Assembly (NCBI GenBank): GCA_019310485.1
Contig: JAFDEF010000001.1
Coordinates: 13,289-77,288, forward strand
Length of the DNA stretch: 64,000 bases
Origin: Deltaproteobacteria bacterium
GTDB lineage: Bacteria; Desulfobacterota; DSM-4660; Desulfatiglandales; HGW-15
Reading direction: 5' to 3'
Shown here: positions 35,868 to 64,000 of the stretch, piece by piece
Position numbering within the stretch: the stretch's first letter is position 1
Layout of the letters: each line of letters begins with the position of its first letter
Notes under the pieces: generated by a model
Databases searched by the model: none
What the model was told of the DNA's origin: nothing
Seen by the model: only the letters and a program-made list of their open reading frames with translations
Made by a program: the position numbers and the translations under genes

Positions 35868-35882
35868 CTCTGAAAAAAGGAA

Positions 35883-38843: not shown

Positions 38844-38905
38844 TGTTTTCCCTCTTTCTGTTTTTATTGTGGATATTTTTCGGAACACGACCTTCACGTT
38901 CCGTT

Positions 38906-46668: not shown

Positions 46669-46749
46669 CTTTCATATCCTCCTTTCTGCTTTGTAATTTG
46701 GTTCATACCATACGAAAAACACACTTTTCTTGCACCTGATCACCTCCCT

Positions 46750-47805
46750 TCACTCTCGTTCTTCATGGGAGAAAGGCCATAGCCTGAAATAAGCTCCGAC
46801 AAGCTCCCACCGGTGAGCCAAACCCCTGGGTTCAAAGATAAGGAAGATAATAATCACTAACCCGTGCGCGATCAGGCCCATGGAAGCGGCCGCCTGGGGA
46901 GCAACAATCGCTGACAATCCCGGGCCAACAACCGTGACCAGCTCATCCAGCAACTTGAGAGCAATAGCCCCGAAAAGAGCACCAAGGGTGCTGCCCATAC
47001 CGCCGACGATTAACATACCCAGATACCACACCGAATCCATGAAGGGGAACAGATCCACAGAGGCAAATGCATAATAGTGAACCAACAGCACGCCCGCTAC
47101 CCCCGCATAAACGCAGCCTATAAAAAATGCCTGAAGTTTATAACTCCACAGATTAATTCCCATGACTTCAGCGGCCAGGTCATTATCCCTGATCGCCACG
47201 AATGCCCTGCCTGCCCTTGTCCTCACTATATTCTGAGCCGTGTATGTGGCGAGGCAAGCAAATGCCATGACAAGGCAGAAATAGCTGCCTTTTGACTTCA
47301 CTGTGAACCCCGCTATCTCAGGTCTGGACACCGCTAATCCATCCCCGCCCCCGGTCAGGCCGTATAGCTGGAGGATAAGCCACACAATTATGAAGTGAGC
47401 CGCTATGGTAGCCATAATCAGGTAGAAACCCTTAATCTTTAATGACGGCAGACCGAAGATCAAACCCGCCACCCCGGCCCCTAGGGCGCCGCAAGGCAGG
47501 GTAGCCCAGAATGGCCAGCCAAGCTTGGCGCTTAAGATAGCCGAAGTATAGCCGCCGACTGCCATGAACCCGGCATGGCCAATGGAAATCTGTCCGCAGT
47601 ACCCCGTTAAGATGTTCAAACCGTGGACACTGATAACCGCGATACCGATCATGGTCATTACGGTAAGGGCCCTATCACTGAGAAAAAGAGGACAAGAGAA
47701 AAGGAGAAGGAGAAAAATAAAGAGCATCGCCCATTGCAGCCGGGTTCGGATAATGGCCATATCCTGAGCATAGTTTTCAAGAAAGGTACCACGCTGTCGA
47801 CCCAC
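46750..47805 (-). CDS. HAAT family ABC permease, LivM-type (set 2)
   Basis: 351 aa. Motifs GYCGQISIGHAGFMAVGGY and LKIKGFYLIMATIAAHF. Confidence 0.85.
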   Translation of the reverse strand: MGRQRGTFLENYAQDMAIIRTRLQWAMLFIFLLLLFSCPLFLSDRALTVMTMIGIAVISVHGLNILTGYCGQISIGHAGFMAVGGYTSAILSAKLGWPFWATLPCGALGAGVAGLIFGLPSLKIKGFYLIMATIAAHFIIVWLILQLYGLTGGGDGLAVSRPEIAGFTVKSKGSYFCLVMAFACLATYTAQNIVRTRAGRAFVAIRDNDLAAEVMGINLWSYKLQAFFIGCVYAGVAGVLLVHYYAFASVDLFPFMDSVWYLGMLIVGGMGSTLGALFGAIALKLLDELVTVVGPGLSAIVAPQAAASMGLIAHGLVIIIFLIFEPRGLAHRWELVGAYFRLWPFSHEERE

Positions 47806-47808
47806 AGG

Positions 47809-48696
47809 TTAAATCCTTTCTATCCTGACCTGACCAAACAGGCCATGCGGTTTGAAGATCAGCACAACTATCATGACTATAAAAGGAAACACATTAGCCA
47901 GACCGCCTCCAGGGAGCAATGGGTCCAGGTAGCCGGCAGCAACATTCTCAAGGATGCCCAGGATTATTCCAGCTACGATTGCGCCACCGATTGACTCCAA
48001 TCCACCCAGCAAAACCACGGCAAATGCTTTGATGCCGACATTGGCCAGTGGTATCATAACTCCCGATACGCCGCCCAGAAGAATGCCGCCAATAACGCCG
48101 ACTACCGATGCAATTACCCATGATAGAGCGTAGACCCTGGTTGCTTTAATACCAGCGCTCTGCACTACCTGTAGATCTTCTGCAGTAGCCCTCATTGCGA
48201 GTCCGATCTTGGTGTAATGAAAAAAAAGCATCAGTATTGTTACTGCGGCACCAGACACGATTAGTCCAATTAAGGACTCCGAGGGCACAGAAATTTCCCC
48301 AATGTGAAGGGATAAGGTGGGTAGCAGCCCGTGGTAAGTCTTGTATTCGCCTCCCCAGATTAAGGTTGCCAGACCTTCTAATATGCTTGCCAGGGCTATG
48401 GTCATCATAATTACGGCCAGCACAGGTTGACCAACCAGGGGTCGCAGGGTGAGCCGTTCTATCAGCAAACCCATCACTGCAGCCGTGGCCATTGCCATTA
48501 AAAGACAGGCCCATATCGGCAGGTGAAAAGCTACAAGGAAAGTATATCCCAGGTAACCGCCTATCAGCACGAAATGTCCTTGCGCAATATTGAATACCTC
48601 GGAACATTTCAGAATAATAACAAATCCTATAGCAACCAGAGCATACACTATGCCCAGAGAAAAGCCGGTTACCACCAATTGCAGGAAATAGGTCAT
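47809..48696 (-). CDS. HAAT family ABC permease, LivH-type (set 2)
   Basis: 295 aa, MTYFLQLVVTGFSLGIVYALVAIGF...NIAQGHF. Confidence 0.85.
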   Translation of the reverse strand: MTYFLQLVVTGFSLGIVYALVAIGFVIILKCSEVFNIAQGHFVLIGGYLGYTFLVAFHLPIWACLLMAMATAAVMGLLIERLTLRPLVGQPVLAVIMMTIALASILEGLATLIWGGEYKTYHGLLPTLSLHIGEISVPSESLIGLIVSGAAVTILMLFFHYTKIGLAMRATAEDLQVVQSAGIKATRVYALSWVIASVVGVIGGILLGGVSGVMIPLANVGIKAFAVVLLGGLESIGGAIVAGIILGILENVAAGYLDPLLPGGGLANVFPFIVMIVVLIFKPHGLFGQVRIERI

Positions 48697-48707
48697 TGAA
48701 AAGCTCT

Positions 48708-50633
48708 TTAGGCGGAGTTGATCCTTATAATAGTCCTTCTTTTTTCAGTGCTGCCGTCCCAGTGTTTGATCAGGGTTTCTAATGGAACCTCGGTTTTTTC
48801 ATTATACATGGCGTTGATAAGTTCGCTTAAGCGGTTTTGCAAAAATCTCCGTCTCAGTTTCCTGGTTCTGGTTAGCTCGCCCTCATCAGGACTAAACTCC
48901 CTGTGGAGATTAACGTATTTCTTCAACATGACGCCAGGAGGCAGAGATTGATTTATTCTGTCTATCTCTCTTTTCACCAGGCTTATAACCTCCGGCTTCT
49001 GGGAAAGGTCGGCAAACCCCGTATAGGCCACCTTTCTCTTCCCTGCCCACCTGCTAACTGCATCGTAGTTGATTACTACGATCGCCAATGCGTACTCCTT
49101 GCCTTGGCCAGCCAGGATCCATGCATCCTTGATATAAGGGCTGAACCGAAGCCGGCTCTCAATAAGCTGAGGGGCTATTTTCTCACCACCGGGCAGTTCA
49201 ATAATATCTTCCAATCTGTCTATGATTACGATGTGTCCGTTTTTGTTGATAAACCCTCCATCTCCTGTATGAAACCAACCTTCTTCAAGGACTTGTGCCG
49301 TCCTCTCCGGGTCCTTACAATAGCCCAAAAAAACACCAGGCTGTCGATAGATTATTTCGCCATCGTCGGCTATTTTCACCTCCGATCCCTTGTGGGCAGG
49401 GCCCACTGTATCCAGGGTAACATCATTGTTCTTCGCCCCGGTTAGTGCCCCTCCCTCTGTCGTGCTATAGAGGCTTTTCAGCGGGACCCCTATCGCATGG
49501 TAGAATCTTAGTGCCTCGGGACTGAGAATCGCCCCGGTTGTGTAACAAATTCTGGCATTTAACAGGCCAAGGCTCCGTTTTAAGGGTCTAAAGAGCAAGG
49601 CATCAGCCAATGCGCGAAGAGCTTTCAAAAAAAGTCCCGGCTTTTTCTTCTGAAACTTTAACTCCGCTGCCTTGTAGCCGATCGGCATTAGAAGGCGGAA
49701 AGCGAATTTCTTAATCACATCAGCTGCAAGCATCCGTGCTTGCACTGTTGCTGCCTGACTTTCCCAGATTCTGGCCCCACTGACAACGATGCTCGGCCCT
49801 GTTTCACTGACGTCCCGGTACTGAGTTTCAGGTGCTTCGGCAAAGTTCAAAGTGCAGCCGGAGAGCAGGTGACAGCCAATACTCCACCATTGTTCTGTTA
49901 TCCAGGCTGGCGGCAGGTAAGGCACCAAGTTATCATCCTCATACCATGGATCCAGGAGCAAATGGTAAATGGCGCCGGTCATCAATGTTCTGAAAGTGTG
50001 CAAGCACCCTTTGGGCGAATCCCCGGTAGTGCCTGAAGTGTAGACAATTGCGCAAACATTATCGGCGGAGCCGGTTTCTACACCACGCTCAAATACTCCC
50101 GGATGTTTTTCCTCATGTTCTCTCCCCAGTTCCAGAACCTGCCTGATTCCCATCAACAAGCTATCCCCATAGTGGGCGAGGCCTTTGTAGTTCCAGTAGA
50201 TAACCCTCTCAAGCCGGGGAAGTTCCTGCTTAGCTTCGAGAAACTTGTCAACTTGCTCCTGACCTTGAGCTATTGCAAATCTGGCGTCAGAATTTTCCGC
50301 AATGTATTTTATTTCCGAGGGCGCAAGTTCGGGACACAGACCCACGCTAATCCCGTGGTTGGACTGAGCCGCGAGTTCAGAGTAATACCACTCCGGTGCA
50401 TTGTCCCCCATAATAAGCAGGCGATCTTCAGGTTCAAACCCCAGGGATTGCAAACCCAGTGCAAGATACTTAACACTCAGATAATAGTCCGCCCATGTAA
50501 CAGGTTCCCATACGCCGTAATGCTTGTGCCGCATAGCCTTGCGACTTGCACCGTATTTTTCGTAATTGTACTTGAGTATCTTTGGCCATGTATCGCCCTT
50601 TTCTTTGTAGAGTTCCTCTTGTGTGGAAGCCAT
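48708..50633 (-). CDS. AMP-forming acyl-CoA ligase, long FadD-like form embedded in the ABC operon (ligase 2)
   Basis: AMP-binding motif IVYTSGTTGDSPKGCLHTF and GWFHTGDGGFINKNGHIVIIDRLEDII. ATG 50633 (MASTQEE) lies 16 nt after the livF stop. The track ORF starts at TTG 50657. Confidence 0.85.
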   Translation of the reverse strand: MASTQEELYKEKGDTWPKILKYNYEKYGASRKAMRHKHYGVWEPVTWADYYLSVKYLALGLQSLGFEPEDRLLIMGDNAPEWYYSELAAQSNHGISVGLCPELAPSEIKYIAENSDARFAIAQGQEQVDKFLEAKQELPRLERVIYWNYKGLAHYGDSLLMGIRQVLELGREHEEKHPGVFERGVETGSADNVCAIVYTSGTTGDSPKGCLHTFRTLMTGAIYHLLLDPWYEDDNLVPYLPPAWITEQWWSIGCHLLSGCTLNFAEAPETQYRDVSETGPSIVVSGARIWESQAATVQARMLAADVIKKFAFRLLMPIGYKAAELKFQKKKPGLFLKALRALADALLFRPLKRSLGLLNARICYTTGAILSPEALRFYHAIGVPLKSLYSTTEGGALTGAKNNDVTLDTVGPAHKGSEVKIADDGEIIYRQPGVFLGYCKDPERTAQVLEEGWFHTGDGGFINKNGHIVIIDRLEDIIELPGGEKIAPQLIESRLRFSPYIKDAWILAGQGKEYALAIVVINYDAVSRWAGKRKVAYTGFADLSQKPEVISLVKREIDRINQSLPPGVMLKKYVNLHREFSPDEGELTRTRKLRRRFLQNRLSELINAMYNEKTEVPLETLIKHWDGSTEKRRTIIRINSA

Positions 50634-50649
50634 ATCCCCACGCCTTTTA

Positions 50650-51450
50650 TCAAGCAATCCACCTTTTTCTTCGGCGGTAGTGCTTGATGTCCCGATAACT
50701 TTTTCTAGAGCCCACGGTAGACAGGCCCATATAGAATTCTCTAATGTCGTCGTTATCCCTCAGTTCCTCAGCCGGCCCTCCCATGACTATCTTGCCGTTC
50801 TCCATAATATGGCCGGTATCGGCAATACCAAGCGCAGCTCTGGCATTTTGCTCCACAAGCAGTATTGCCATTTTTTGTTCAGAGTTAATCCCTTTGATAA
50901 TTCCATAAATTTCCTGGACCATGAGCGGGGCAAGGCCGAGTGATGGTTCATCAAGAAGCATAAGCTTGGGACGGCCCATGAGGGCTCTACCGATCACAAG
51001 CATCTGCTGCTCGCCCCCGGATAGATATCCGCTTGTCTGGCGGCGGAGACGCTTAAGGCCGGGAAAATAGTCAAAAACCATATCCATATCTTTCTTGACG
51101 CCAGCCCTATCCTTCCTGAGATAGGCTCCGACCATTAAATTTTCCTCAACGGTTAGGTGCTCCAGAACTCTTCTTCCCTCCATAACCTGGCTAATACCCA
51201 TTCCAGCGATATCCTCGGGTCCATACCCATCTATTCTCTCCCCAGCGAGGTAAATGCTTCCATCGGTTATCTCTCCTTCCTCGGTTTTTAGAAGACCTGA
51301 TATGGCCTTTAGCGTGGTGGTCTTTCCTGCACCGTTAGCCCCGAGAAGGGCAATTATTTTCCCCCTGCTCACGTTCAGGGATACCCCTCGCAGTACCTCA
51401 ATAACCTTCATGTAAACAACTTCAATATTGTTTATCTGGAGCACCAGCAA
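50650..51450 (-). CDS. HAAT family ABC ATPase, LivF-type (set 2)
   Basis: 266 aa. Walker A GANGAGKTT, signature LSGGEQQMLVIGRAL and Walker B LMLLDEPS. It has a short basic C-terminal tail. Confidence 0.9.
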   Translation of the reverse strand: MLVLQINNIEVVYMKVIEVLRGVSLNVSRGKIIALLGANGAGKTTTLKAISGLLKTEEGEITDGSIYLAGERIDGYGPEDIAGMGISQVMEGRRVLEHLTVEENLMVGAYLRKDRAGVKKDMDMVFDYFPGLKRLRRQTSGYLSGGEQQMLVIGRALMGRPKLMLLDEPSLGLAPLMVQEIYGIIKGINSEQKMAILLVEQNARAALGIADTGHIMENGKIVMGGPAEELRDNDDIREFYMGLSTVGSRKSYRDIKHYRRRKRWIA

Positions 51451-51489
51451 TATCCCCGATTCTGGTTAAAAACGCTAACGCCTACCTGT

Positions 51490-52314
51490 TTAAACCTCTA
51501 TTTCCTGCCCCAGGTAAGCACTTATCACCTTGTGGTTACTCTTTATTTCAGAAGGGCTACCCTCCGCAATTTTTCGCCCAAAATCTAGAACAACAACCCT
51601 GTCCGCTATATCCATAACTACCCCCATGTCGTGCTCAACAAGGATAATACATCCCACCCCTTCTCTCAAAACAGGCGTGTCGGGATAAGTCTCTCCCTGG
51701 CCTTCGAATACATCAATTATAAATCTTGCCATATCCTCTTTTTCCTCCTGGTTCATGCCGGCCATGGGTTCATCAAGAAGCAGCACTTTCGGTTCCAGGG
51801 CCAGAGCCCTCCCCAGTTCGACTCTTTTTTGCATTCCGTAGGGAAGAACCCCAACTGTTTTTTTCCTGATTGGTGCGATTTCCAAAAAATCAATAATCTC
51901 TTCTACAATACGGCGGTGCTTAATTTCCTCCCCAAGCGCCCAGCCAAAGTATATCGCCCCGCCGAGAAAATTCTGCCCCATGAGGGCGTGCCTGGCTGCC
52001 ATCAGATTGTCTTGAGTGCTAAGCCCCCTGTAAAGCTCAATGTTCTGAAAAGTTCTCGCAATCCCCACCTTGGCTAACTTGTCAGGACGCATACGGGTGA
52101 TCTTCTGCCCGTCAAAATAGATCTCGCCTTTCTGCGGTTTATAAAAACCATTTATACAGTTTAGAAGCGCCGTCTTGCCCGCGCCGTTAGGTCCTATTAT
52201 TGCCAGTATTTCCTTATCCTTGACCTCCATGCTCACTTCATCAAGCGCTCTAACCCCGCCAAAGCTTAGCGAAAGGCTGTCAATCCATAACCTGATCTCG
52301 CTATCGCCTTCCAC
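51490..52314 (-). CDS. HAAT family ABC ATPase, LivG-type (set 2)
   Basis: Walker A GPNGAGKTA and Walker B LLLLDEPMAGMN. GTG 52314, preceded by GGAGG, gives a typical length. The track ORF extends to 52410. Confidence 0.85.
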   Translation of the reverse strand: MEGDSEIRLWIDSLSLSFGGVRALDEVSMEVKDKEILAIIGPNGAGKTALLNCINGFYKPQKGEIYFDGQKITRMRPDKLAKVGIARTFQNIELYRGLSTQDNLMAARHALMGQNFLGGAIYFGWALGEEIKHRRIVEEIIDFLEIAPIRKKTVGVLPYGMQKRVELGRALALEPKVLLLDEPMAGMNQEEKEDMARFIIDVFEGQGETYPDTPVLREGVGCIILVEHDMGVVMDIADRVVVLDFGRKIAEGSPSEIKSNHKVISAYLGQEIEV

Positions 52315-52661
52315 CGAATCTTGCCTCCAATCTCTTTCTGGTGAAAATAAAAGGGCCAGTGCGCACTTTGAGATAATATTCGGGCAGCCATCTATTCCGG
52401 GTTCCTGCAAACGATTACGCCCCGGACCTTAACTTAAGTAATTAGGATTTCTTTTCAAAAGAGGGCCTTTGTGACCGGGTTGCAACAAAATACCGCTCAT
52501 TTCTCTCAATTCACTATATCATGCGGCCTCAAAAACTGCAGCAATGCTTTTCCCCTCTCCAAAATGAATGCACCTGATGGGGCATACCCCCATGCATGCA
52601 GGCTCTTCACCCTGGGCGAGCCTCTCCGCAACACGCTTCCACTCATCAAGTTCTTCATAAA

Positions 52662-53546
52662 TCAGGCTTCTAGCCAGCCTTTGCGAAAGGCCCTGATATA
52701 ATCCTGGCACCACCGGTCTTGACCCAGAAGAAGGGTAGTTGCTCTCAATGTCCCCATGAGTTTCTTATCTAGGGGATCCACAATGGCTGCGCTGAGTCCT
52801 GCTCTCATGGCAAGGGCCAAAAAAGCCCTGTTAACCAGGTGGCGTTTGGGCAATCCGAATGAAACATTCGATAACCCGCAGATCACATTCGCCCCCGGTA
52901 GTTTCCGCCTGATCCCCTCAATTGCTTCAAGCGCAATCAGGGCTGCATTGGTATTCGTGCTCACCGCCTGAATAACAGGATCAATGTAGATTCTCTCTCG
53001 TTTTACTCCCAGAGATTCAAGATCCGAGACGAGCCGCGCCGCAGTATCCAGCGCTTGTTCCGCGTTTTTGGGAATGCCCTTGTCATCAATACAAAGGGCT
53101 ACAATGTCGCAATCCGTGCTTTGGATTATTTCTGACATTGCCTCAAATCGATCTTTCTCCGCGGTTGTCGAGTTCAGCATCGGAGGGCGCTCTACCACGT
53201 GCAGCACCGATCGGATACTACCAGGATTTGGGCTGTCAATGCATAGCCTCACCTCCGGCACGGTACTTTGAACAATGTCAATGAGCCACGCCAGATCATC
53301 CACCTCTGAGTTGAGACGTGATCCTGCGTTAATATCTATCAAATCAGCCCCTGCCTCAAGCTGAGATTTCACATCTTCCTGGATGTATGCAGCCTCCCGC
53401 TTCTCCACGGCTTCATTTACTCGCTTACGGCTCGTGTTTATCCGCTCCCCAACTATTACCAGCACAATCTCCCCCCTTTGGGCCTCTGCTTGCGTGCACT
53501 CACCATTCCCCCCCCGGGGCACGTCGGAAGTCTGCCCCGGGGGCAT
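52662..53546 (-). CDS. Pterin-binding methyltransferase (methylcorrinoid:tetrahydrofolate methyltransferase, MtrH/AcsE/MtvA-like)
   Basis: IVGERINTSRK, AGADLIDINAG, LCIDSPNP, IALCIDD, IYIDP and GLSNVSFGLP are hallmarks of the pterin-binding (DHPS-like) methyltransferase barrel. An alternative GTG start is at 53465. Confidence 0.8.
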   Translation of the reverse strand: MPPGQTSDVPRGGNGECTQAEAQRGEIVLVIVGERINTSRKRVNEAVEKREAAYIQEDVKSQLEAGADLIDINAGSRLNSEVDDLAWLIDIVQSTVPEVRLCIDSPNPGSIRSVLHVVERPPMLNSTTAEKDRFEAMSEIIQSTDCDIVALCIDDKGIPKNAEQALDTAARLVSDLESLGVKRERIYIDPVIQAVSTNTNAALIALEAIEGIRRKLPGANVICGLSNVSFGLPKRHLVNRAFLALAMRAGLSAAIVDPLDKKLMGTLRATTLLLGQDRWCQDYIRAFRKGWLEA

Positions 53547-53626
53547 ATCAACCTAAAGACTTTCAATGGCTTTTCTCTTGAGGCAAGTTAATCTTGCCTT
53601 ATCTCTTTACACAGAATCCAACGGTT

Positions 53627-54964
53627 TTACCTGTAGACACCGTATTCTCTTGTGAAATCTATCATTGCGTGCAAGGTGTCGGGCTTGCCTTCATCCATAC
53701 CAGTTCCCGTGGCCATGATAAACCCCCCGCCCTTTCCGGCCACATCTATAAGCTCCTTACAGTAAGCTTTCACTTGTTCAGGGGTGCCAGTGAGCAACAG
53801 CCCTGCCGGAACATTTCCGCCAATACAGATCTTGTCACCAATGAGCTCTTTTGCCTTTGCCATATCAGTGCGGTCAAATATCCAAAAACAAGAACCCCTT
53901 GGAAGTTCCTCTAGATATTTAAGCCTGGTATTAAAGCTTCCCTCGCAAAACAAGAAGGGAACACATCCCTCACTGGCAATCCCCAGGATCACATCCTTAA
54001 GAGGAGGCCAGTAGAATGTTCTGAACTGCTCGTCCGACAAAAAACCGTCCGCCCCCTTGTGCAAGGGCATAAAGACCATTGGATTGCCTGCCATGGTGGC
54101 CATACCTACCCCCTGTTTTATCTGAAGAGGGGTGATTCTCTCCATGGCTTTTGAAACCATCTCCGGCCGTCTGTACAGGTCGGTCATGATGCCTCTTGTA
54201 CCCCGAAGTGTATCTGCCAGGATATCGTAAGGCGCTTTGGCCGCGCCGCCCATTGCTGTGGGGAAACCCATGCCTTTGGCTTCCATCTCGAAAGCCTGAA
54301 TTTTTTGGAACCACACCATGGCTTCGTTTCCAGCCTCTAACAATGCTTTCAGCGCGTTCTGAACATCTGGTATCCCATATGGAACCGTGAGACCGGAAAC
54401 CGCCACGATTTCCCACAACCAGGTCAACGGAGCGAGGTTTGCCAGGGGCGCCAGGGTCCCAAAAACACGAGGAATCCATGTTCTCAGCCAAAAATCCGAG
54501 GGGTCGTCAATAAGTGAAGGGTAATCCTCGGCTTTCATATATTCGCCTTCGACGCATTGATATCCGGAGTTTTTGGACACACCGTGCCCAGGCCACCTGT
54601 ATTGTCGGAATTCGAGGATTTCCAGTATCTTTCCCGAGCCTATAAAGGCTGGAGAACCATAATAGTCAGGCTTGTAGTCAAGCAAGAACTGCTTATTGGT
54701 GGACACCAGCTTGTCATAATCATACATGCATTCGTAGGGTGTCACTCCGTAGAGGTCTGTCTGCATAAAGGTGCCTATGGGGAATATCGGCACCCTGTCT
54801 GGAGTTTTTTCCATAAGAACGGTATCTTTAAACCTGGTTACGCTTGCCTTGTACATGGCCTCAGCTTCCGGGCTTTGGAATTCTACCCCTTCTGCTGCAT
54901 ACCAGGTTGCAAACCTGGCCTCCCTTTTCTCTTCTGCCGACATCTCTTCCCATTTCTTTTCCAT
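53627..54964 (-). CDS. Uroporphyrinogen-decarboxylase (URO-D) family methyltransferase (substrate:corrinoid methyltransferase candidate)
   Basis: 445 aa of the long URO-D-family type seen in O-demethylase/MtaA-like systems. Its start codon lies 1 nt after the corrinoid-protein stop. Confidence 0.75.
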   Translation of the reverse strand: MEKKWEEMSAEEKREARFATWYAAEGVEFQSPEAEAMYKASVTRFKDTVLMEKTPDRVPIFPIGTFMQTDLYGVTPYECMYDYDKLVSTNKQFLLDYKPDYYGSPAFIGSGKILEILEFRQYRWPGHGVSKNSGYQCVEGEYMKAEDYPSLIDDPSDFWLRTWIPRVFGTLAPLANLAPLTWLWEIVAVSGLTVPYGIPDVQNALKALLEAGNEAMVWFQKIQAFEMEAKGMGFPTAMGGAAKAPYDILADTLRGTRGIMTDLYRRPEMVSKAMERITPLQIKQGVGMATMAGNPMVFMPLHKGADGFLSDEQFRTFYWPPLKDVILGIASEGCVPFLFCEGSFNTRLKYLEELPRGSCFWIFDRTDMAKAKELIGDKICIGGNVPAGLLLTGTPEQVKAYCKELIDVAGKGGGFIMATGTGMDEGKPDTLHAMIDFTREYGVYR

Positions 54965-54965
54965 T

Positions 54966-55598
54966 TTACCGCCCTCCTATCCAGCCTTTAGCCAGTTTCA
55001 CTGCTTCCATGGCATCCTTGCCGTATGCATCCGCCCCAGTGTAACTCCTGACTTGTTCGTCAATCTGTCCGCCCCCTATCATGATTTTCAGATCATCCCG
55101 AAGCCCCGCTTCAGTTATCGCATCAACAGTATCCTTCATGGATTGAAACGCCAGCGTGAGAAAACCGCTCAACCCAACCACCTTGCTCCCGGTTTCCTTG
55201 ATTGTATCTACAAATTTCTGCGCCGGGACGTCTATCCCAAGGTCGTGAACCTCAAATCCGTTTACATCCAGCATAAAAACAACAAGGTCCTTCCCAATAT
55301 CATGGATGTCACCAGCCGCTGTGCCGATAACCACTTTGCCGAGCCGCTCTGTTTTCTCATCTTTCTTTAGGTGTGGCTCGAGAATCTTGACAATGCCCTT
55401 GAGGACTTCCCCTGAGAAAACAAGGTCTGGGATGAAATATTCTTCTGTGGCAAACTTCTGCCCCACAATGTTCATCCCGTCCCTGGCATCCCCCAAAAGC
55501 TCCATAGGGTCTACTCCCTCTGCCAGGGCTTTTTCAACAAAGTTCAGGGCCTCCTGCTCCTTTAACTCTGATAACAATTTCACCAATTCCCCTGCCAT
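54966..55598 (-). CDS. Corrinoid (B12-binding) protein
   Basis: 210 aa. N-terminal helical cap domain, then the B12-binding Rossmann domain with DxHxxG (GDIHDIGKDLV), SxL (GLSGFLT) and GG (MIGGG). Confidence 0.85.
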   Translation of the reverse strand: MAGELVKLLSELKEQEALNFVEKALAEGVDPMELLGDARDGMNIVGQKFATEEYFIPDLVFSGEVLKGIVKILEPHLKKDEKTERLGKVVIGTAAGDIHDIGKDLVVFMLDVNGFEVHDLGIDVPAQKFVDTIKETGSKVVGLSGFLTLAFQSMKDTVDAITEAGLRDDLKIMIGGGQIDEQVRSYTGADAYGKDAMEAVKLAKGWIGGR

Positions 55599-55722
55599 AG
55601 CATTAGCCTCCTTTTGGAATTTTTCAAAAACGCCTTAACAGTACCCACAAATGAACTCCCAGTTTCACCGACACGCCACCCCGCTCAGACATAGCTTTTA
55701 AATCACATGAAACCTGGGGTTC

Positions 55723-56190
55723 TTATTGTCCTACGGAAAGCATGTTGTTTCTGATTAGCTTTCTCAGTTTGTCAAGGAGATCCATCTTGGCCTCTTCGCT
55801 GAATCCCTTGAGAATAGACTCTGCGCTTTTTTCCTTTTCGGGTTCTATGTTCTTGAGGGTTCTTTTCCCTTTGGGTGTTATTTCCAGGATGGTCACACGT
55901 TCATCATTCGGATCTGATTTCCTAATCAAGAACCCGTCTCTTTCCAGTCTCTTGGCTATACCTGTCATATTAGCACCGGGAACAAGCATTATCCTGCTCA
56001 CCTCAGAGATTTTGTTTCTGCCGTTCAGAGATGCGTCCAGAACTCTGAGCACGTTATACTGGGGAAAGGACAGGCCGTAGTTTCTGAAAATAGCGCTATG
56101 GCTCCTTTTAAAAATTTCAGCGGCCCTCACCATCGCCATCAGCACCCTCTCATTGGTGCTAAGGTCACTTACGTATCTCTTGGTGTTCAC
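55723..56190 (-). CDS. MarR family transcriptional regulator
   Basis: 155 aa. Winged-helix region LSFPQYNVLRVL...ISEVSRIMLVPGANMTGIAKRLERDGFLIRKSDPNDERV. Confidence 0.85.
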   Translation of the reverse strand: MNTKRYVSDLSTNERVLMAMVRAAEIFKRSHSAIFRNYGLSFPQYNVLRVLDASLNGRNKISEVSRIMLVPGANMTGIAKRLERDGFLIRKSDPNDERVTILEITPKGKRTLKNIEPEKEKSAESILKGFSEEAKMDLLDKLRKLIRNNMLSVGQ

Positions 56191-56231
56191 AGCTATCCCC
56201 TAACCAGTGATTGTCAAAAGTTATTCAATAT

Positions 56232-56260
56232 ATGTAATATATAAATGTAATGTAATTACA
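56232..56260. promoter_or_regulatory. AT-rich operator-like repeats in the marR / ligase-3 divergent region
   Basis: The heptamer ATGTAAT occurs at 56232 and 56245, with GTAAT again at 56252. They overlap the 10-bp palindrome TGTAATTACA (56251-56260), about 40-70 nt upstream of the marR start. Confidence 0.25.
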
Positions 56261-56563
56261 GCTCTTGTCTTCCTTTAACCGAATGTTCATTATGGGATAT
56301 TTGATTCCTTAACTCACCAGCTGCCTAATATCACTGTATTTTCGTCCTGTCAACACTAATCCTTATATTTTTTGGGCTACTGGTGGGAAAGAAACTTATT
56401 GGATCTCATTATTTCTTGGTACGTACGCTTGAAACGGAAGACCTCTAAGCACGGGGGCATGGGAGTGCTATTTCAAATTTTAAAATATTTAGGTGTTACT
56501 AGTTAAAATCTACTATTTATATTACTTGACTGACAATTAGAAGCAAAATTGATAATAAAAGTC

Positions 56564-56794: not shown

Positions 56795-58402
56795 ATGACT
56801 GACAAATACGTTTTGAAGGAATTGTGCCGCTACAAGCTGGGAACTTTTGCTGATATTGTTTATAGAAACGCCCTCTTGCGTTCCGAGGAAGAGGCATTCG
56901 TGTCCGGAGCTGAAAGGGTAAGCTTTGCCAAGTTCAACGAGCGAGTAAACAGCTTGGTACACGCTATTTACTCATTGGGCGTCAAGAAAGGTGACGTTAT
57001 AGGCATTGCCTCATGGAATTGTCTTGAGTATACGTATTTCTGTGGGGCTGCAATGAAGGGCGGATTTGTTGCATCCCCCTTTAATCCTCGGCTTCATAAG
57101 GAGGAATTGGAATACCTCATCAACTACTCGGAGGCGAAAACGCTTTTTGTTGGCCCGGAGCTCATTCCTGTAATTAAAGACCTCAGGTCCCGTCTTCCTT
57201 CAGTAAAAAACTATATTTCAATAGGTAGCCCCGCCTCTGACATGCTTTTTCATGACGAGTTACTTTCCGCTTACCCTTCAAATGAACCGGATGTAAATAT
57301 CAACAGGGATGACCCCTTGATCATATTCTACACCAGCGGTACAACGGGAGTTCCCAGAGGTGCCTTATATACACATTTTCGCAAGCTGGATAACACCCGA
57401 ATAAAAGCGCTGGAGATGGGGGCAAAGCCAGGAGACAGGCACCTTATGGTACTGCCATTCTTTCACATTGGTGGAGACAGTCATGTGTGGCCCTTTTTTA
57501 TTGTCGGAGGATGCAACGTCATAATGCTTCAAAAATCCTTTGATCCGGCTGCTGTTCTTAAAACAATTGAAGATGAGAAAATAACCGATATGCAAATTGT
57601 TCCTACCCAACTCAATTCTTTGCTCTCGCTTCCGAATCTCAGGGACCGTGACCTAAGCAGCCTTAATAGAATCTACTATGCGGCCTCTCCAATGCCGGTT
57701 GAATTACTGAGAAAAGGGCTTGATATATTTGGCTCGATTTTTTCACAGGGTTATGGCCAGACTGAATCCGGACCTCAAATCTGCTCTTTGCCCAGAAAAG
57801 CTCATCAGGTCCTGGATAGATCGGCCGAGGAGCAAGAAGTGCTAAGTTCCTGCGGACAGCCCAGCCTTGGGGTCCATGTGCGAGTCGTGGATGAAAAAAA
57901 TAACGATGTTGCTCCAGGAACCGTGGGGGAGATCATCGCAAAGAGCGATTCAATCATGGTTGAATACTGGCATCGGCCGCAAGAAACAAGCGAGGTTCTT
58001 GTAGGGGGGTGGCTCCACACTGGAGATCTCGGGTACTATGACGAAAAAGGATTCATATACATAGTTGACAGGAAAAAAGACATGATCGTAACTGGTGGAG
58101 AAAACGTGTACTCCCGGGAGGTAGAGGACATCCTTTACAAGCACAAGGCGATAGCCGAAGTTGCTGTCGTCGGTATACCCGACCCGCTATGGGTAGAACG
58201 GGTTCATGCCGCTATTGTTCTTAAGTCTGGTACAACGGCAACTCAAGAGGAAATTATTACGTTTTGCAAGAAGCACCTGGCCTCGTACAAGGCGCCCAAG
58301 TCTGTCGAGTTTCTGGAAGCCCTCCCCAAAAATGCGCAGGGCAAGATCTTGAAAAGAGAAATTGTCAAGAAATACAAAACAGCAAATAGCCCTCCAGAAT
58401 GA
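56795..58402 (+). CDS. AMP-forming acyl-CoA ligase (ligase 3)
   Basis: 535 aa. Motifs IIFYTSGTTGVPRGALYTH, YGQTESG, GWLHTGDLGYYDEKGFIYIVDRKKDMI and C-terminal LPKNAQGKILKRE. Confidence 0.85.
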   Translation: MTDKYVLKELCRYKLGTFADIVYRNALLRSEEEAFVSGAERVSFAKFNERVNSLVHAIYSLGVKKGDVIGIASWNCLEYTYFCGAAMKGGFVASPFNPRLHKEELEYLINYSEAKTLFVGPELIPVIKDLRSRLPSVKNYISIGSPASDMLFHDELLSAYPSNEPDVNINRDDPLIIFYTSGTTGVPRGALYTHFRKLDNTRIKALEMGAKPGDRHLMVLPFFHIGGDSHVWPFFIVGGCNVIMLQKSFDPAAVLKTIEDEKITDMQIVPTQLNSLLSLPNLRDRDLSSLNRIYYAASPMPVELLRKGLDIFGSIFSQGYGQTESGPQICSLPRKAHQVLDRSAEEQEVLSSCGQPSLGVHVRVVDEKNNDVAPGTVGEIIAKSDSIMVEYWHRPQETSEVLVGGWLHTGDLGYYDEKGFIYIVDRKKDMIVTGGENVYSREVEDILYKHKAIAEVAVVGIPDPLWVERVHAAIVLKSGTTATQEEIITFCKKHLASYKAPKSVEFLEALPKNAQGKILKREIVKKYKTANSPPE

Positions 58403-58566
58403 GCGGCTCCCATAAATCGGAAGAAAAACGCATGCAGGATGTTCTTTTCATTGAACCACCCGGGACTTTTCAAGGGTTGTGGCCAAGTGGCAAGTAATTC
58501 GGAACTGAGATTGCGGTTTTTCCTCATTCAGGAAGCCTAGCGAAGAAACCAAATACTACCTTTTTC

Positions 58567-59334
58567 TTGCGGTCAAGAGGCATAGCACAATTGAAAAATA
58601 ACGGAAAAGATGTGGTTTTGCGTCTTGAAAAAATAACAAAAAGTTTTGGGGGGCTAATGGCCCTGAACGGCGTTGATCTCAGCGTAGAACAGGGACAGAT
58701 CGTTGGGCTCATTGGACCAAATGGAGCGGGTAAAACTACACTATTCAATGTCGTCACTTCACTTTACAAGCCGGATAAAGGCGACGTTTATCTGGCTGGT
58801 AAAAAAATCACAGGCAAACCTTCTCATCAACTGTGTCATCTTGGTATTTCCAGAACTTTTCAGTTGGTCAAGACGTTTTTGAGCTTGACCGCGTTTAAGA
58901 ATGTCTTGATTGGCGCCATTTACGGCCACGGAATGAGAGGAAGACAGGCACGGGAAGAAGCACTGGAGGCCCTGCGTCTCGTCGGACTTGCCGACAAGAA
59001 AGAGGTTGTTACTGCTCATATGACCCTTTCAGACCGCCGGCTCCTTGAAGTGGCACGAGCACTGGCCGCAAAGCCTTTGATCACCCTTGTGGATGAACCC
59101 ATGGCCGGGCTGAATCCGTCCGAGATCATCAACATGCTGAAGGTCATTAAACGCGCACGAAACGAAAGAAATGTTGCCATCCTGTGGGTGGAACATAAAG
59201 TGGATGCAATCTTCCGTTTGTGCGACCGCGTAGCGGTATTGGATTATGGGCGCAAGATAGCCGAAGGCAAGCCCGAAGAAATTGCTCAAAACAAAAAAGT
59301 CATCGAGGCGTATCTTGGCAAACCACCTCCTTGA
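58567..59334 (+). CDS. HAAT family ABC ATPase, LivG-type (set 3)
   Basis: Walker A GPNGAGKTT and Walker B ITLVDEPMAGLNP. The start is uncertain: TTG 58567 or GTG 58612. Confidence 0.85.
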   Translation: MRSRGIAQLKNNGKDVVLRLEKITKSFGGLMALNGVDLSVEQGQIVGLIGPNGAGKTTLFNVVTSLYKPDKGDVYLAGKKITGKPSHQLCHLGISRTFQLVKTFLSLTAFKNVLIGAIYGHGMRGRQAREEALEALRLVGLADKKEVVTAHMTLSDRRLLEVARALAAKPLITLVDEPMAGLNPSEIINMLKVIKRARNERNVAILWVEHKVDAIFRLCDRVAVLDYGRKIAEGKPEEIAQNKKVIEAYLGKPPP

Positions 59335-60037
59335 GGTAAAAGGCGTTAACATCTTTCACGGCGACGCTCAGGCAGTATGGGATGTCTCCTTCCATGTAGA
59401 TGAGCAAAAAATCGTAGCTCTAGTGGGAGCTAACGGTGCTGGAAAGAGCACGATCCTGAACGCCATCTCAAGCATTATTAGGCCTAGTGGTGGAGATATC
59501 TTATTCTCAGGAAACTCTACTGTCAGGCTTAAACCTGAAGAAGTCGTGGCCATGGGTATCTCCCAGGTGCCGGAGGGTCGCCGCATTTTTTCTTGTTTAA
59601 CCGTTCTGGAAAATCTTGAGCTTGGCGCCTATCCTGCCAACAAGCGCCCTTACTTAAAGGAATCCATGAAAAGGGCTCTATCCGTCTTTCCAGTGCTTGA
59701 AAGCCGAATGGGCCAGGCTGCCGGGACTCTCAGCGGAGGAGAACAGCAAATGCTAGCCATTGCAAGGGCTTTGATGGCCAGGCCGACTCTCCTAATGTTG
59801 GACGAACCTTCCCTGGGACTTGCCCCCATATTTGTGAGCCGAGTTTTTGATACGATTCAGGCCCTCAATAAAGAAGGTCTGACTATACTCTTGGTTGAAC
59901 AAAATGTTTTCCAGGCTATGGAGATAGCTGACTATGCTTTTGTGCTTCAAACAGGCAGACTGAAAATGGAAGGCACCACGGAAGAGCTCAGGGGCAACCC
60001 CGAGTTTCAGCACGCCTTTTTGGGAATTATGGGATAG
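59315..60037 (+). CDS. HAAT family ABC ATPase, LivF-type (set 3)
   Basis: Walker A GANGAGKST, signature LSGGEQQMLAIARAL and Walker B LLMLDEPS. TTG 59315 (RBS GAGG 6 nt upstream) is preferred. The track ORF begins at 59282. Confidence 0.85.
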   Translation: MANHLLEVKGVNIFHGDAQAVWDVSFHVDEQKIVALVGANGAGKSTILNAISSIIRPSGGDILFSGNSTVRLKPEEVVAMGISQVPEGRRIFSCLTVLENLELGAYPANKRPYLKESMKRALSVFPVLESRMGQAAGTLSGGEQQMLAIARALMARPTLLMLDEPSLGLAPIFVSRVFDTIQALNKEGLTILLVEQNVFQAMEIADYAFVLQTGRLKMEGTTEELRGNPEFQHAFLGIMG

Positions 60038-60041
60038 ACCT

Positions 60042-60935
60042 ATGACGACCTTTCCTTCTGCATCAGTATTCTTTCAGGTCCTCATCAACGGAGTCCTGCT
60101 GGGGTGCATGTATGGTGTTGCCGCAATAGGACTGAGCCTTATTTTTGGAACCATGCGCATTATTTTCCTTGCTCAAGGTGCGGTGATGATTTTGGCAGCT
60201 TACTGCATATACTGGATGGCGACACTCAGTCCAATCAATCCTTTTTTCGGCTTCTTGTTGATCCTTCCCGTATTCCTTGGGCTTGGCTGGATAATGTACA
60301 AGGGACTTTTCCAGAAAGTTGCAAAGGCAGGGGCCAATCCTTCTCTTCTCTTGGCATTCGGACTCATGGTTCTTTTGGAACACGTCATGTCGTTGATCTG
60401 GTCGCCTACCACGCGCTCGGTGATAACGAGCACTTCCACCTCGTCATTAACTCTGGGCAGCATTAACATATCTGTCACCCGTCTCATAGTAGCAGCAGTC
60501 GCCCTTATGGCAACAGCCCTGGTATTCTTGTTCCTGAAAAAAACTATGCTCGGCAAGGCAGTGCGTGCCGCCTCCGAGGATATGAGCGCCGCAGCTCTCC
60601 TGGGAATAAGCCCGACCTATGTGAGCGCAGTCACCTTTGCCATTGGAATAGCTCTCGCCGGCGTTGCGGGAGTAGCGGCCTGTATTACCTATCCATTTGA
60701 TCCGTTTTTTGGTTTTCTCTTCAGTCTCAAAGCTTTAATCGCAGTGGCTTTCGGGGGCCTGGGCAGTGTAGGAGGACCGCTGGTGGGAGGAGTCATGTTA
60801 GGCGTTTTGGAAAGTATGAGTGCTTACACTTTCAGTGCGGGCTGGGCGGATGCCGTCGCATATGCCGCATTCTTGCTAATCTTGATACTTCGACCGGAAG
60901 GGATGCTTGGCCGGCGGAGCATTGAAAAAGTTTAG
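60042..60935 (+). CDS. HAAT family ABC permease, LivH-type (set 3)
   Basis: 297 aa multi-TM protein, VLINGVLLGCMYGVAAIGLSLIFG. Confidence 0.85.
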   Translation: MTTFPSASVFFQVLINGVLLGCMYGVAAIGLSLIFGTMRIIFLAQGAVMILAAYCIYWMATLSPINPFFGFLLILPVFLGLGWIMYKGLFQKVAKAGANPSLLLAFGLMVLLEHVMSLIWSPTTRSVITSTSTSSLTLGSINISVTRLIVAAVALMATALVFLFLKKTMLGKAVRAASEDMSAAALLGISPTYVSAVTFAIGIALAGVAGVAACITYPFDPFFGFLFSLKALIAVAFGGLGSVGGPLVGGVMLGVLESMSAYTFSAGWADAVAYAAFLLILILRPEGMLGRRSIEKV

Positions 60936-60948
60936 GAGTAGCAGCACC

Positions 60949-61944
60949 ATGCTTCAGGAGCCATTAAAACGAAAGACGCACCTCTCGATAGCCCTGGCTC
61001 TTGTCTTCTTTTTTGTGATTTATCCTTTATTGGTTGATGCTGAAGCATCCTATTTGGTTTTTTTATTTTACACGGCCTTCATGTATGTAACCCTGTCACA
61101 GGGGTGGAATATTGCAGCAGGCTATGCAGGGCAGGTCTCCCTTGGTCAACATGCCTTTTTCGGCATAGGTTGTTATGTAACCGCCATAACCTGGAGAGCG
61201 GGGACTGCCGGCTATCTAGACCCTTTGGCCATGCTCATGAGTGGAGCGGGTGCGGCCGTTGTGGCAATAGTGGTGGGTTTACCTCTCCTAGCCAAGCTGA
61301 GAGGCGATTATTTTGCTCTTGGGACCCTGGGACTCGGGGAGATCCTGCGGGTGGCTGCTCTCAATGGGGGGTCCTTTACAGAAGGAGCAGCAGGCATCAG
61401 CATCCCATCTGATGTCTATCAATCAATAAAGCCTTACTACTTTATAGCTCTTCTCATATCCGTGCTTACCATGCTATCGCTTTGGTTCATAGCACACTCC
61501 CGTATTGGTCTTGCACTTGTTGCAATAAGGGAAGACGAAACGGCCGCATCGGCCAACGGCATCCCGATACTGAGATACAAAATACTGGCTTTTACTCTGG
61601 GCGCATTTGTGACAGGGCTTTGCGGGAGTCTTAACGCTTACTTTGTATTTCACATTGATACGACAGGGGCATTCAATCTCAATTGGGTGATTATGCCCAT
61701 TCTCATGGTTATCTTGGGTGGTGTAGGGACTTTTGTGGGACCTGTGCTCGGGGTCTTCTCCCTTATTGCTGCCTTTGAGCTCATCCGTCTCCTGACCCCC
61801 CAGCTCCATCCAATTTTTTCAGGAGCGTTTATAATTCTGGTAACACTCTTTCTGCCCGATGGCATAATGAGCTATCTAACGGGGCATAAAAACAGGTTGT
61901 TGCACAAGTTATCTCCTTTTAAATGGCTTGCCCTGAATAAATAA
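60949..61944 (+). CDS. HAAT family ABC permease, LivM-type (set 3)
   Basis: GYAGQVSLGQHAFFGIGCY and LRGDYFALGTLGLGE. ATG 60949, after AGGAG, is preferred over the track start 60907. Confidence 0.85.
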   Translation: MLQEPLKRKTHLSIALALVFFFVIYPLLVDAEASYLVFLFYTAFMYVTLSQGWNIAAGYAGQVSLGQHAFFGIGCYVTAITWRAGTAGYLDPLAMLMSGAGAAVVAIVVGLPLLAKLRGDYFALGTLGLGEILRVAALNGGSFTEGAAGISIPSDVYQSIKPYYFIALLISVLTMLSLWFIAHSRIGLALVAIREDETAASANGIPILRYKILAFTLGAFVTGLCGSLNAYFVFHIDTTGAFNLNWVIMPILMVILGGVGTFVGPVLGVFSLIAAFELIRLLTPQLHPIFSGAFIILVTLFLPDGIMSYLTGHKNRLLHKLSPFKWLALNK

Positions 61945-62118
61945 CACCGTGAAATCAAGAAGTTTGCCCAAGACGGAGTTCAGCACAGAGATATGGAAAC
62001 CAAGGCTAAAGCCAACGGAAAGGAGGTGAAAATTATCCGATTAAAGTCCACCGGAGGCAGGATTCTTTAGTTTGAGTCCGGAATCGCAACAAATCAATTT
62101 TAAAGAGGGAGGATAACC

Positions 62119-63342: not shown

Positions 63343-63373
63343 GCCGATAAGGAACTGTGCAAATCAAGTTAGA

Positions 63374-63406
63374 CTTTCACGCGGGGCGCGCCGCCCCGCG
63401 TGAAAG
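63374..63406 (+). terminator. Perfect GC-rich palindrome after the set-3 binding-protein gene
   Basis: ctttcacgcggggcg-cgc-cgccccgcgtgaaag, 32 nt downstream of the stop. No immediate U-tract. Confidence 0.45.
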
Positions 63407-63511
63407 TATGCCATAAGAAATTGATTTTGATCCCGTGCTTTTCCATGCCCCATTTCCGAACGGGAAAGGGCATGGCGAAAACCGTAACTATTTCACCGCC
63501 AGGAGGGAAAG

Positions 63512-64000
63512 ATGGAAATTAAGGCAGCCGTAATTTTTGAGAAATGCGGAAAGTTCAGCATTGAGCGCTTAGAACTCAGCGACCCCAAAGATGACGAAGT
63601 GCTGGTTCGAATTGTTGTTACAGGGATCTGCCATACGGATCTCGCAGCGAGGGACATGCACTTACCTATACCACCGCCCCCCAGTGTTTTTGGTCATGAA
63701 GGGGCCGGCATTGTCGAAAGGGTGGGAGCGGGTGTGACTAAAGTAAAGCCGGGAGACCATGTGGTACTGGCCTGGAACTCCTGTGGTACATGCAGCTCGT
63801 GCAAGGCCGGGATGGATTCCTATTGCCTGAATTTCTTTCTATACAACTTTCACGGAGCTCGGCTGGACGGGACCACGACCTTGAGAAAGGGAGATCAGGT
63901 TATACATGGCTCTTTCTTCAGCCAGTCTTCTTTTGCCGATTTTGCGCTTGCCTCCGAACGAAACGTCGTAAAGGTAAGAAAAGACGTTCCCATTGAAATC
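63512..64000 (+). CDS. Zinc-dependent aryl-alcohol/benzyl-alcohol-type dehydrogenase (3' end outside window; absent from the ORF track)
   Basis: My own translation from ATG 63512 (RBS AGGAGGG at 63501) is MEIKAAVIFEKCGKFSIERLELSDPKDDEVLVRIVVTGICHTDLAARDMHLPIPPPPSVFGHEGAGIVERVGAGVTKVKPGDHVVLAWNSCGTCSSCKAGMDSYC... It stays open to nt 64000. The Zn-ADH motifs GICHTD and GHEGAGIV and the structural Cys cluster are present. Confidence 0.8.
   Translation, partial: MEIKAAVIFEKCGKFSIERLELSDPKDDEVLVRIVVTGICHTDLAARDMHLPIPPPPSVFGHEGAGIVERVGAGVTKVKPGDHVVLAWNSCGTCSSCKAGMDSYCLNFFLYNFHGARLDGTTTLRKGDQVIHGSFFSQSSFADFALASERNVVKVRKDVPIEI

Follow-up and report, generated by a model that had tools for sequence, protein, structure and literature searches.

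The window analysed here, a stretch of 64,000 nucleotides (nt), carries on its minus strand four consecutive genes, which encode a MarR-family regulator and the three components of a corrinoid methyltransferase system that is probably an anaerobic O-demethylase. In the order of transcription, these are marR (55723..56190; 155 amino acids (aa) from a GTG start, 138 aa in the NCBI version; Pfam MarR_2), the gene of a corrinoid (cobalamin-binding) protein (54966..55598; 210 aa; B12-binding_2 and B12-binding domains), the gene of methyltransferase I (MT-I), a substrate:corrinoid methyltransferase of the long UroD-superfamily type (53627..54964; 445 aa; homologous to MtvB, MtoB and CdmB), and the gene of methyltransferase II (MT-II), a pterin-binding methyl-corrinoid:tetrahydrofolate methyltransferase (52662..53465; 267 aa from GTG; NF005719, Pterin_bind). 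An earlier, sequence-only reading of this DNA had described four such genes, and the open reading frames (ORFs) were found at the positions and on the strand it gave; the peptide motifs quoted in it (IVGERINTS, LIDINAG, GLSNVSFGLP and GDIHDIG) are all present in them. The host is labelled at NCBI as Deltaproteobacteria bacterium, a metagenome-assembled genome (MAG), and the closest relatives for the cluster belong to Desulfatiglandales.

The three components are complete, tightly coupled at the level of genes and can each be placed in a family, which supports the previous view of the locus as a three-component corrinoid methyltransferase system. The stop codon of the corrinoid gene and the start codon of the MT-I gene are separated by one nucleotide, as had been claimed (TAA-a-ATG), with AGGAGG as the ribosome-binding site. 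We looked for this arrangement in GTDB species genomes, which contain 387 relatives of MT-I; the neighbour counts given throughout refer to the best 80 of these 387 loci (48-80% identity, all MAGs) and rest on tblastn together with a clustering of every ORF in the neighbourhood. The corrinoid gene lies approximately 634-670 nt upstream of the MT-I start in most related loci and is present in 53 of 81 loci (the 80 related ones and the window's own contig), thus the arrangement is not due to chance. The longest ORF of MT-II begins with an ATG at 53546 and has 294 aa. The start is, however, most likely the GTG at 53465, since it follows the Shine-Dalgarno sequence GGGGGGAG, homologues begin there and NCBI calls the same start. 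An Rfam scan of positions 51000-58000 for a cobalamin riboswitch or another RNA gave no match at E values up to 1.

MT-I matched the Pfam family URO-D with an E value of 1.6e-23, the match spanning only residues 234-441 of 445. We compared it by blastp with reference MT-I sequences from Supplementary Data 3 of PMC13222342. The closest of them was MtvB of Moorella thermoacetica (34% identity over 413 of 445 aa, E 1e-64, 204 bits), followed by MtoB of Archaeoglobus and Methermicoccus (27-29%) and by CdmB (25%), a chloromethane:corrinoid methyltransferase that was described from Acetobacterium dehalogenans in 2026 (PMC13222342). The homology to the characterised O-demethylases MtvB and MtoB is full-length. 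UroD of Bacillus subtilis matched over 139 C-terminal aa (24%, E 2e-4), CmuA, MecE and MecC gave short C-terminal matches only, and with the short OdmB/VdmB type of about 330 aa nothing significant was obtained (E above 0.1). In the multiple alignment, His302 of MT-I (within PLHKG) is common to MtvB and MtoB and is replaced by Trp in CdmB, and an insertion of about 25 residues that CdmB and MtoB have in common is missing from MT-I. The clade to which the window protein belongs is marked by an N-terminal extension of 34 residues, which is conserved, and by a ~25-residue insertion of its own (residues ~173-200); wherever 33 family members are invariant, MT-I agrees with them.

The trees (neighbour-joining, Poisson distance, 100 bootstraps) separated the long MT-I group from UroD, CmuA and Mec in 84/100 bootstraps and recovered the window clade as monophyletic in 100/100, while a clade of CdmB and MtoB excluded both the window clade and MtvB in 94/100. 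Judged by sequence similarity, MtvB is the nearest characterised enzyme; this is a claim about similarity and not about a sister group.

The corrinoid protein contains both expected domains, B12-binding_2 (PF02607, E 1.5e-13) and B12-binding (PF02310, E 3.8e-20), and reached 173 bits against TIGR02370, which is under the cut-off of 215. It is thus a small corrinoid protein with a B12-binding cap, a Rossmann domain and a His-on DxHxxG motif. Three motifs had been attributed to it before, and two of them are in place, namely DxHxxG (D97-I-H99-D-I-G102) and GG (G175G176); the literal SxL is not there and its site reads S143-G-F-L, the equivalent in 4JGI of Desulfitobacterium hafniense being SGVL. 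The closest solved relative is the same 4JGI (168 bits), which we take to be the corrinoid protein of the D. hafniense O-demethylase. With the B12 ligand motif kept and this structure as the best solved relative, the concern that the protein might lack a functional B12 site was not borne out. An identical corrinoid protein was found on 6 contigs.

MT-II scored 315 bits against NF005719 (methyl-tetrahydrofolate:corrinoid/iron-sulfur protein methyltransferase), above the cut-off of 259, and matched Pfam Pterin_bind with E 1.1e-24. It aligns over its full length to 4O0Q, MtaA, CdmA and MtvA, and the identity is 47% to an MtaA-type MT-II of an acetogen, 41% to CdmA, 36% to MtvA, 35-38% to OdmD/VdmD and 33% to AcsE. 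The best solved relatives are 4O0Q, 4O1E and 4O1F (219 bits), the MT-II of D. hafniense, which were named 'dihydropteroate synthase' by their depositors; 4O0Q is presumably part of the O-demethylase system of that organism. In a recent study 4O1E and 4O1F serve as folate-bound MT-II templates (PMC13222342).

Public annotation would have the locus as a chance neighbourhood of a HemE, a dihydropteroate synthase (DHPS) and an unrelated cobalamin-binding protein. MT-I is deposited as MBW1934387.1 (the contig carries the proteins MBW1934386-MBW1934389) under the name 'uroporphyrinogen decarboxylase [Deltaproteobacteria bacterium]', and besides the NCBI product names this account can draw on the predicted structure. 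The AlphaFold2 model of MT-I (mean predicted local distance difference score 85.6, predicted template-modelling (TM) score 0.86) shows a UroD-like TIM barrel with extensions, and its best matches in a Foldseek search of the PDB were UroD structures, with TM scores of 0.67-0.69 normalised to the target. However, the Foldseek library goes up to April 2026 and is older than the CdmB entries; CdmB was therefore no possible match, and the search shows the generic UroD fold only. A UroD-like barrel has been reported for CdmB as well, and the fold is common to the whole methyltransferase superfamily (PMC13222342). MT-I has the TIM barrel in common with HemE/UroD, but it has about 100 extra residues and stands in a corrinoid methyltransferase gene context. 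The family models separate both enzymes from their database names: MT-I reached 31 bits against TIGR01464 (hemE), roughly tenfold short of the cut-off of 303, and MT-II 25 bits against TIGR01496 (DHPS), for which the cut-off is 163. The sequence-only reading would have fallen if MT-I grouped with true HemE or MT-II with DHPS, and neither does. Moreover, dozens of genomes show the coupling of the corrinoid protein and MT-I, together with MT-II and activases. On the family scores, the MtvB alignment and the conserved neighbourhood we reject the annotated functions.

Among known systems, MtvABC, the vanillate/dicamba O-demethylase of M. thermoacetica, combines, like the window, a long UroD-type MT-I with a corrinoid protein and a tetrahydrofolate-using pterin-binding MT-II, and MtvB has the PLH(K/R)G histidine and a C-terminal REYGVY in common with the window MT-I. 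The likeness to Moorella Mtv that had been drawn earlier is therefore apt, MtvB being the closest characterised MT-I. There are also differences: MtvB lacks the N-terminal extension and the insertion of the window clade, and its host is an acetogen, whereas the window stems from a Desulfobacterota-like MAG with a marR gene and an ATP-binding cassette (ABC) importer in the surroundings. In MtoABCD, the system of Methermicoccus shengliensis and Archaeoglobus fulgidus, the O-demethylase MtoB is likewise of the long UroD type, has the conserved His and works with a corrinoid protein and a RACE-type activase, but it carries the insertion that the window MT-I lacks. MtoA uses tetrahydromethanopterin; it is an MtrH-type MT-II and gave no blastp match with the window MT-II at E 1e-3. 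The Odm and Vdm systems (A. dehalogenans, D. hafniense) have a corrinoid protein and an MT-II of the same families as the window, whereas their MT-I enzymes form a different, short branch, and OdmB/VdmB contain zinc (PMC13222342).

CdmBCA of A. dehalogenans shows the same three-component architecture as the window, and CdmB (9RUI) is the only solved long UroD-type MT-I as well as the only strong match of the window MT-I among PDB sequences (104 bits, E 8e-29). Together with the 41% identity between MT-II and CdmA, this raises the question of whether the window encodes a Cdm-like dehalogenating methyltransferase for haloalkanes such as chloromethane. We regard this as highly improbable. MT-I is closer to MtvB and MtoB than to CdmB, the CdmB + MtoB clade excludes it, it has His302 where CdmB, an enzyme for haloalkanes and not for methoxy-aromatics, has Trp, and the insertion common to CdmB and MtoB is absent. 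The CdmB-like conservation set was defined at an identity of at least 40%, against 25% here; most occurrences of CdmB are in Bacillota and Asgard archaea (PMC13222342). ABC importers for solutes and coenzyme A (CoA) ligases, which accompany the window genes, would also be unexpected for a gaseous substrate.

The relatives of MT-I are numerous. A word-indexed search gave thousands, the top 120 of which were all 66-100% identical, and an exhaustive search of 50% representatives gave 388 clusters at E below 1e-30; an MT-I identical to that of the window occurs on 4 metagenomic contigs. The best 80 relatives in GTDB species genomes are labelled as Desulfatiglandales, Syntrophorhabdales, Desulfobacterales, Dehalococcoidales and Actinomycetota/Gaiellales, together with some 'Spirochaetes' and one Bathyarchaeia. 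Apart from the corrinoid gene, the neighbours counted in related loci were MT-II (28), Liv-type ABC components (about 27), zinc alcohol dehydrogenase (Zn-ADH; 13-18), aldehyde:ferredoxin oxidoreductase (AOR; 11-13), AMP-binding (CoA) ligases (8) and rhodanese (7). Three loci with MT-I at 76-78% identity (our L084, L085 and L007) have one and the same order, i.e. Liv-ABC, ThiS-like, AOR, ADH, AOR, small ORF, corrinoid protein, MT-I and rhodanese, with no MT-II or activase within 10 kb.

Homologues of the small subunit of pyrogallol hydroxytransferase (4V4C_B, 264 bits) stand beside MT-I in L023, L043 and L051, and the large subunit (AhtL-like domain) was found in L043 and L051. The transhydroxylase loci occupy L023 10-1503, L043 1392-4888 and L051 6473-9902, and the MT-I enzymes there are 50-65% identical to that of the window. 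This suggests a trihydroxybenzene route in these MAGs, from syringate or trimethoxybenzoate to gallate, pyrogallol and phloroglucinol. Tandem arrays of MT-I genes are found too, with up to 7 paralogues in L068 (1268-9500), and they are the layout expected for broad ranges of methoxy-aromatic substrates. In Dehalococcoidales/Chloroflexia MAGs (L068, L057, L058, L062 and L066), 3-7 MT-I paralogues are accompanied by one corrinoid protein, one activase and one MT-II.

In the window itself, a Liv-type ABC importer lies on the same strand as the methyltransferase genes (45412..52314, minus; identified by Pfam; two ATPases, a 649-aa AMP-binding protein, two permeases and a 418-aa binding protein). 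Its association with them is inferred, as is co-transcription, there being no terminator-like site on that strand in the gap between. The gene table corrects the start of the first ABC ATPase, which is probably 52314. Orthologues of the importer (56-82% identity) adjoin MT-I genes in three loci, L012, L014 and L044, each with its own arrangement. The AMP-binding protein is FadD11-like (48708-50657, minus), is placed between the ATPases and the permeases and is kept in the same three loci, which hints that uptake is coupled to activation with CoA. On the other side, a divergent unit (56795..64000, plus), whose association may likewise be presumed, comprises a 535-aa acyl/aryl-CoA ligase, a second Liv-type ABC importer and a Zn-ADH, according to Pfam and the gene table of L001. 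Orthologues of the ligase (56-68%) follow the methyltransferase genes in L008 and L055. The Zn-ADH begins at 63512 (plus) and is cut by the end of the window, with an AOR just beyond it; the fragment is 72% identical to the ADH in the ABC-AOR-ADH-AOR-corrinoid protein-MT-I operons of relatives, and that ADH scored 372 bits against benzyl alcohol dehydrogenase (1F8F) versus 248 bits against class III ADH.

In systems of these families, a methyl group of the substrate is reported to be loaded by MT-I onto Co(I); MT-II then takes it off CH3-Co(III) and hands it to tetrahydrofolate, while cobalt that has been oxidised to Co(II) is repaired by a RACE activase at the expense of ATP (PMC13222342). 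Importers, ADH, AOR, CoA ligases and the pyrogallol transhydroxylase near relatives point to a non-volatile, imported aromatic acid, aldehyde or alcohol as the substrate. From homology and gene neighbourhood we infer both the direction of transfer and a methoxy-aromatic donor. MT-I would bind the methoxylated aromatic and present its O-methyl group to the Co(I) corrinoid protein, giving CH3-Co(III) and the hydroxy-aromatic; MT-II would then move the methyl group to tetrahydrofolate and regenerate Co(I), and the resulting methyl-tetrahydrofolate would be oxidised or assimilated via the methyl branch of the Wood-Ljungdahl pathway. The flanking Liv-type importers may take in the substrate, and the CoA ligase, the benzyl-alcohol-dehydrogenase-like ADH and the AOR may handle the skeleton of the aromatic acid, aldehyde or alcohol. 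From time to time Co(II) would have to be re-reduced by a RACE-type activase, necessarily encoded elsewhere in the genome, and MarR would repress the genes until a phenolic ligand binds.

To the whole statement, i.e. a corrinoid-dependent anaerobic O-demethylase-type system with a methoxy-aromatic donor and transfer of the methyl group to folate, we assign a probability of roughly two in three; the component assignments and folate-directed methyl transfer, taken alone, are held with high confidence. Several points weigh against the statement. Neither members of the MT-I clade nor relatives above 35% identity are known to have been assayed, and the nearest characterised enzyme is only 34% identical. 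In the trees, MtvB branches at the base of the radiation to which the window clade belongs, but with a support of only 14/100 bootstraps, which leaves the deep branching order weak. CdmB, a member of the closest enzyme family, is chloromethane-specific and inactive on methoxy-aromatics (PMC13222342), so the substrate cannot be read from family membership. The closest relatives of MT-I (70-80% identity) have no adjacent MT-II, and the window's marR has a counterpart in only 2 related loci, i.e. this association is not conserved. The 64 kb contain no Wood-Ljungdahl genes, and no RACE activase was found in them (by Pfam scans of ORFs of at least 150 aa not overlapped by a longer ORF, and by tblastn with two activase sequences). 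On NCBIfam, the CoA ligases matched only the generic 'long-chain-fatty-acid-CoA ligase' subfamily and no aromatic-acid ligase equivalog. The solute-binding proteins of 418 and 407 aa had weak matches in the PDB (E 1e-6 to 1e-10), the top one for the 418-aa protein being 4N03, presumably a fatty-acid binder. They appear too distant from solved aromatic-acid binders for a ligand to be assigned, since amino-acid binders and other family members score alike.

The serious rival is a system with the same three-component mechanism, delivering to tetrahydrofolate, whose donor is not a methoxy-aromatic but a methylthio compound (methanethiol, dimethyl sulfide or methylmercaptopropionate), a methoxylated aliphatic, or another imported O-, S- or N-methyl compound. 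The sequence-only reading had left room for this with its words 'or other methyl-donor'. Specificity does switch between close relatives, as CdmB among the O-demethylases illustrates, and apart from the distance to MtvB and the weak deep phylogeny, the FadD11-like fatty-acid ligase resemblance of the embedded AMP-binding protein, the match of the 418-aa binding protein to 4N03 and the rhodanese that recurs beside the corrinoid protein-MT-I pair would fit such a donor. On the other hand, both nearest characterised enzymes, MtvB and MtoB, use phenyl methyl ethers and share His302 with MT-I; the benzyl-alcohol-dehydrogenase-like ADH and AORs recur nearby, pyrogallol transhydroxylase does so in 3-4 loci, and tandem MT-I arrays are typical of O-demethylase loci. 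A different donor is therefore unlikely in our view, though it deserves attention.

The rhodanese is a two-domain protein (3-mercaptopyruvate-sulfurtransferase-like, below the cut-off) located directly beside the corrinoid protein-MT-I pair in the 7 loci, all outside the window (L084 11416-12366; L085 11434-12387; L007 ~11409; L044 1927-2967; L069/L070 ~8331-9335; L071), and in the closest relatives it holds the place of MT-II. That it marks a sulfur methyl acceptor and formation of methanethiol is pure speculation. In a broader form, the clade would represent a distinct demethylation pathway, acting on methoxylated aromatic aldehydes or alcohols or on a non-aromatic donor, with a sulfur methyl acceptor in the rhodanese loci; we find this quite doubtful. 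If true, the sulfur acceptor would supply the long-sought enzymology by which methoxy-aromatics give rise to methanethiol and dimethyl sulfide in sulfidic sediments.

The absence of an activase from the window, noted already in the sequence-only reading and confirmed by both of our searches, bears on a further possibility, namely that the methoxy-aromatic demethylase proposed here is a decaying, non-functional remnant left by a rearrangement that removed the activase and truncated an iron-sulfur gene. In L023 and L035, MT-I and MT-II flank an activase, which is missing at that place in the window; directly after MT-II there is, moreover, a gene relic. The ferredoxin-like relic claimed before proved to be real. 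It is part of a 64-aa ORF behind MT-II that overlaps the end of the MT-II gene in a different frame and of which only the distal part is meaningful: positions 52626-52507 correspond, with 57.5% identity (E 6e-9, tblastn), to residues 114-153 of an intact 153-aa Fer4_11 protein of L044, a Desulfatiglandaceae MAG. The feature (52507..52626, minus) thus represents the last 40 codons of a gene for a 4Fe-4S dicluster beta subunit and is non-functional. In L044, the Fer4_11 protein follows a 720-aa molybdenum/tungsten bis-molybdopterin guanine dinucleotide (Mo/W-bisMGD) enzyme and directly precedes the orthologous ABC operon. No trace of the Mo/W large subunit was seen in the window. In the window lineage, a rearrangement has therefore joined MT-II to the stub of this 4Fe-4S gene.

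Decay of the system itself is nevertheless very unlikely. All four ORFs are intact and full-length in comparison with their homologues, MT-I keeps all columns invariant in its family, the ribosome-binding sites and the 1-nt coupling are preserved, and identical proteins occur in several independent assemblies. An adjacent activase is common but not obligatory: a RACE activase lies within 10 kb of the orthologues in 21-23 of 80 related loci (for example L023 6454-8292 and L044 5015-6889, the latter with RACo domains by Pfam), and 57 of 80 have none within reach, activases often being encoded away from the methyltransferase genes.

The placement of the genes 'under a MarR regulator' in the earlier account stands as far as the marR gene upstream is concerned, and does not as regards a link across relatives. 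Control of the cluster by MarR is likely, the methyltransferase genes sitting downstream of marR. The protein matched Pfam MarR_2 (E 5e-10), and its top NCBIfam match was HpaR, the regulator of the homoprotocatechuate operon (57 bits, below the cut-off of 121). An orthologue at 70% identity adjoins an MT-I gene in just one other related locus, L064. The region upstream of marR (56191..56270) is a candidate operator/promoter, in which a perfect palindrome, TGTAATTACA, at 56251-56260 and a tandem 13-mer containing ATGTAAT at 56228-56253 could be read. Between the marR stop and the corrinoid gene there is a 15-nt inverted repeat with a 40-nt spacer (55653-55722, minus), and the stability of this hairpin was no better than that of shuffled sequence (z = -1.09).

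Among the methyl pools of anoxic sediments, the methoxy groups of aromatics derived from lignin are a major one, and to our knowledge characterised enzymes for their release come only from acetogens, Desulfitobacterium, a methanogen and Archaeoglobus. The system described here is of a known kind and brings no new mechanism; it is a new, uncharacterised relative, complete and intact in a Desulfobacterota-like MAG, and belongs to a widespread clade represented by MAGs only. With the public labels 'uroporphyrinogen decarboxylase' and 'dihydropteroate synthase' corrected, the reading of metagenomes with respect to anaerobic turnover of lignin monomers and flow of one-carbon units into sulfate reduction would change. 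The consistent gene context also yields a prediction on anaerobic demethoxylation in sulfate-reducing and syntrophic lineages, and candidates for expression. On O-demethylation in Desulfatiglans/Desulfobacterota, one relevant literature passage was found, which reports expression, in a lignin enrichment, of a 'bacterial-type methyltransferase' cluster belonging to Desulfatiglandales Bin.026 (PMC10989822); a preprint with mtvB as a marker gene contributed nothing further. The best genome match to MT-I (80%) is in a MAG named 'Desulfatiglandales bacterium Bins.026' (GenBank JBMNCO01), possibly the same organism.

Some further observations concern the surroundings of the genes and their relatives. 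The intact Mo/W enzyme of L044 (11335-13960), with MT-I on one side and the orthologous ABC operon on the other, is acetylene-hydratase-like, its closest solved relative being acetylene hydratase 2E7Z (409 bits). In 11 loci, among them L071 (7382-8011) and L079 (8608-9189), C_GCAxxG_C_C 'putative redox-active' proteins, which fall into two clusters, were seen close to the corrinoid protein-MT-I pair; in the window there are none. One of the 50% representatives, P0154 (692 aa), matches MT-I with residues 260-689, behind an extra N-terminal region of 260 residues, and may be a fusion with a corrinoid domain. Further along the window, a protein with a PhlG (DAPG-hydrolase) domain (38259-38909, minus) comes after the second Liv-type ABC operon, and positions 25780-38127 encode an FMN reductase, a SnoaL-like protein, a CoA ligase, the large and small subunits of AcnX, a DeoC aldolase, a Zn-ADH, a class II aldolase and an FAD protein similar to the vinyl phenol reductase VprA (338 bits, below the cut-off of 600). 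The genes at 25780-38909 may form another phenolic or polyketide catabolic cluster.

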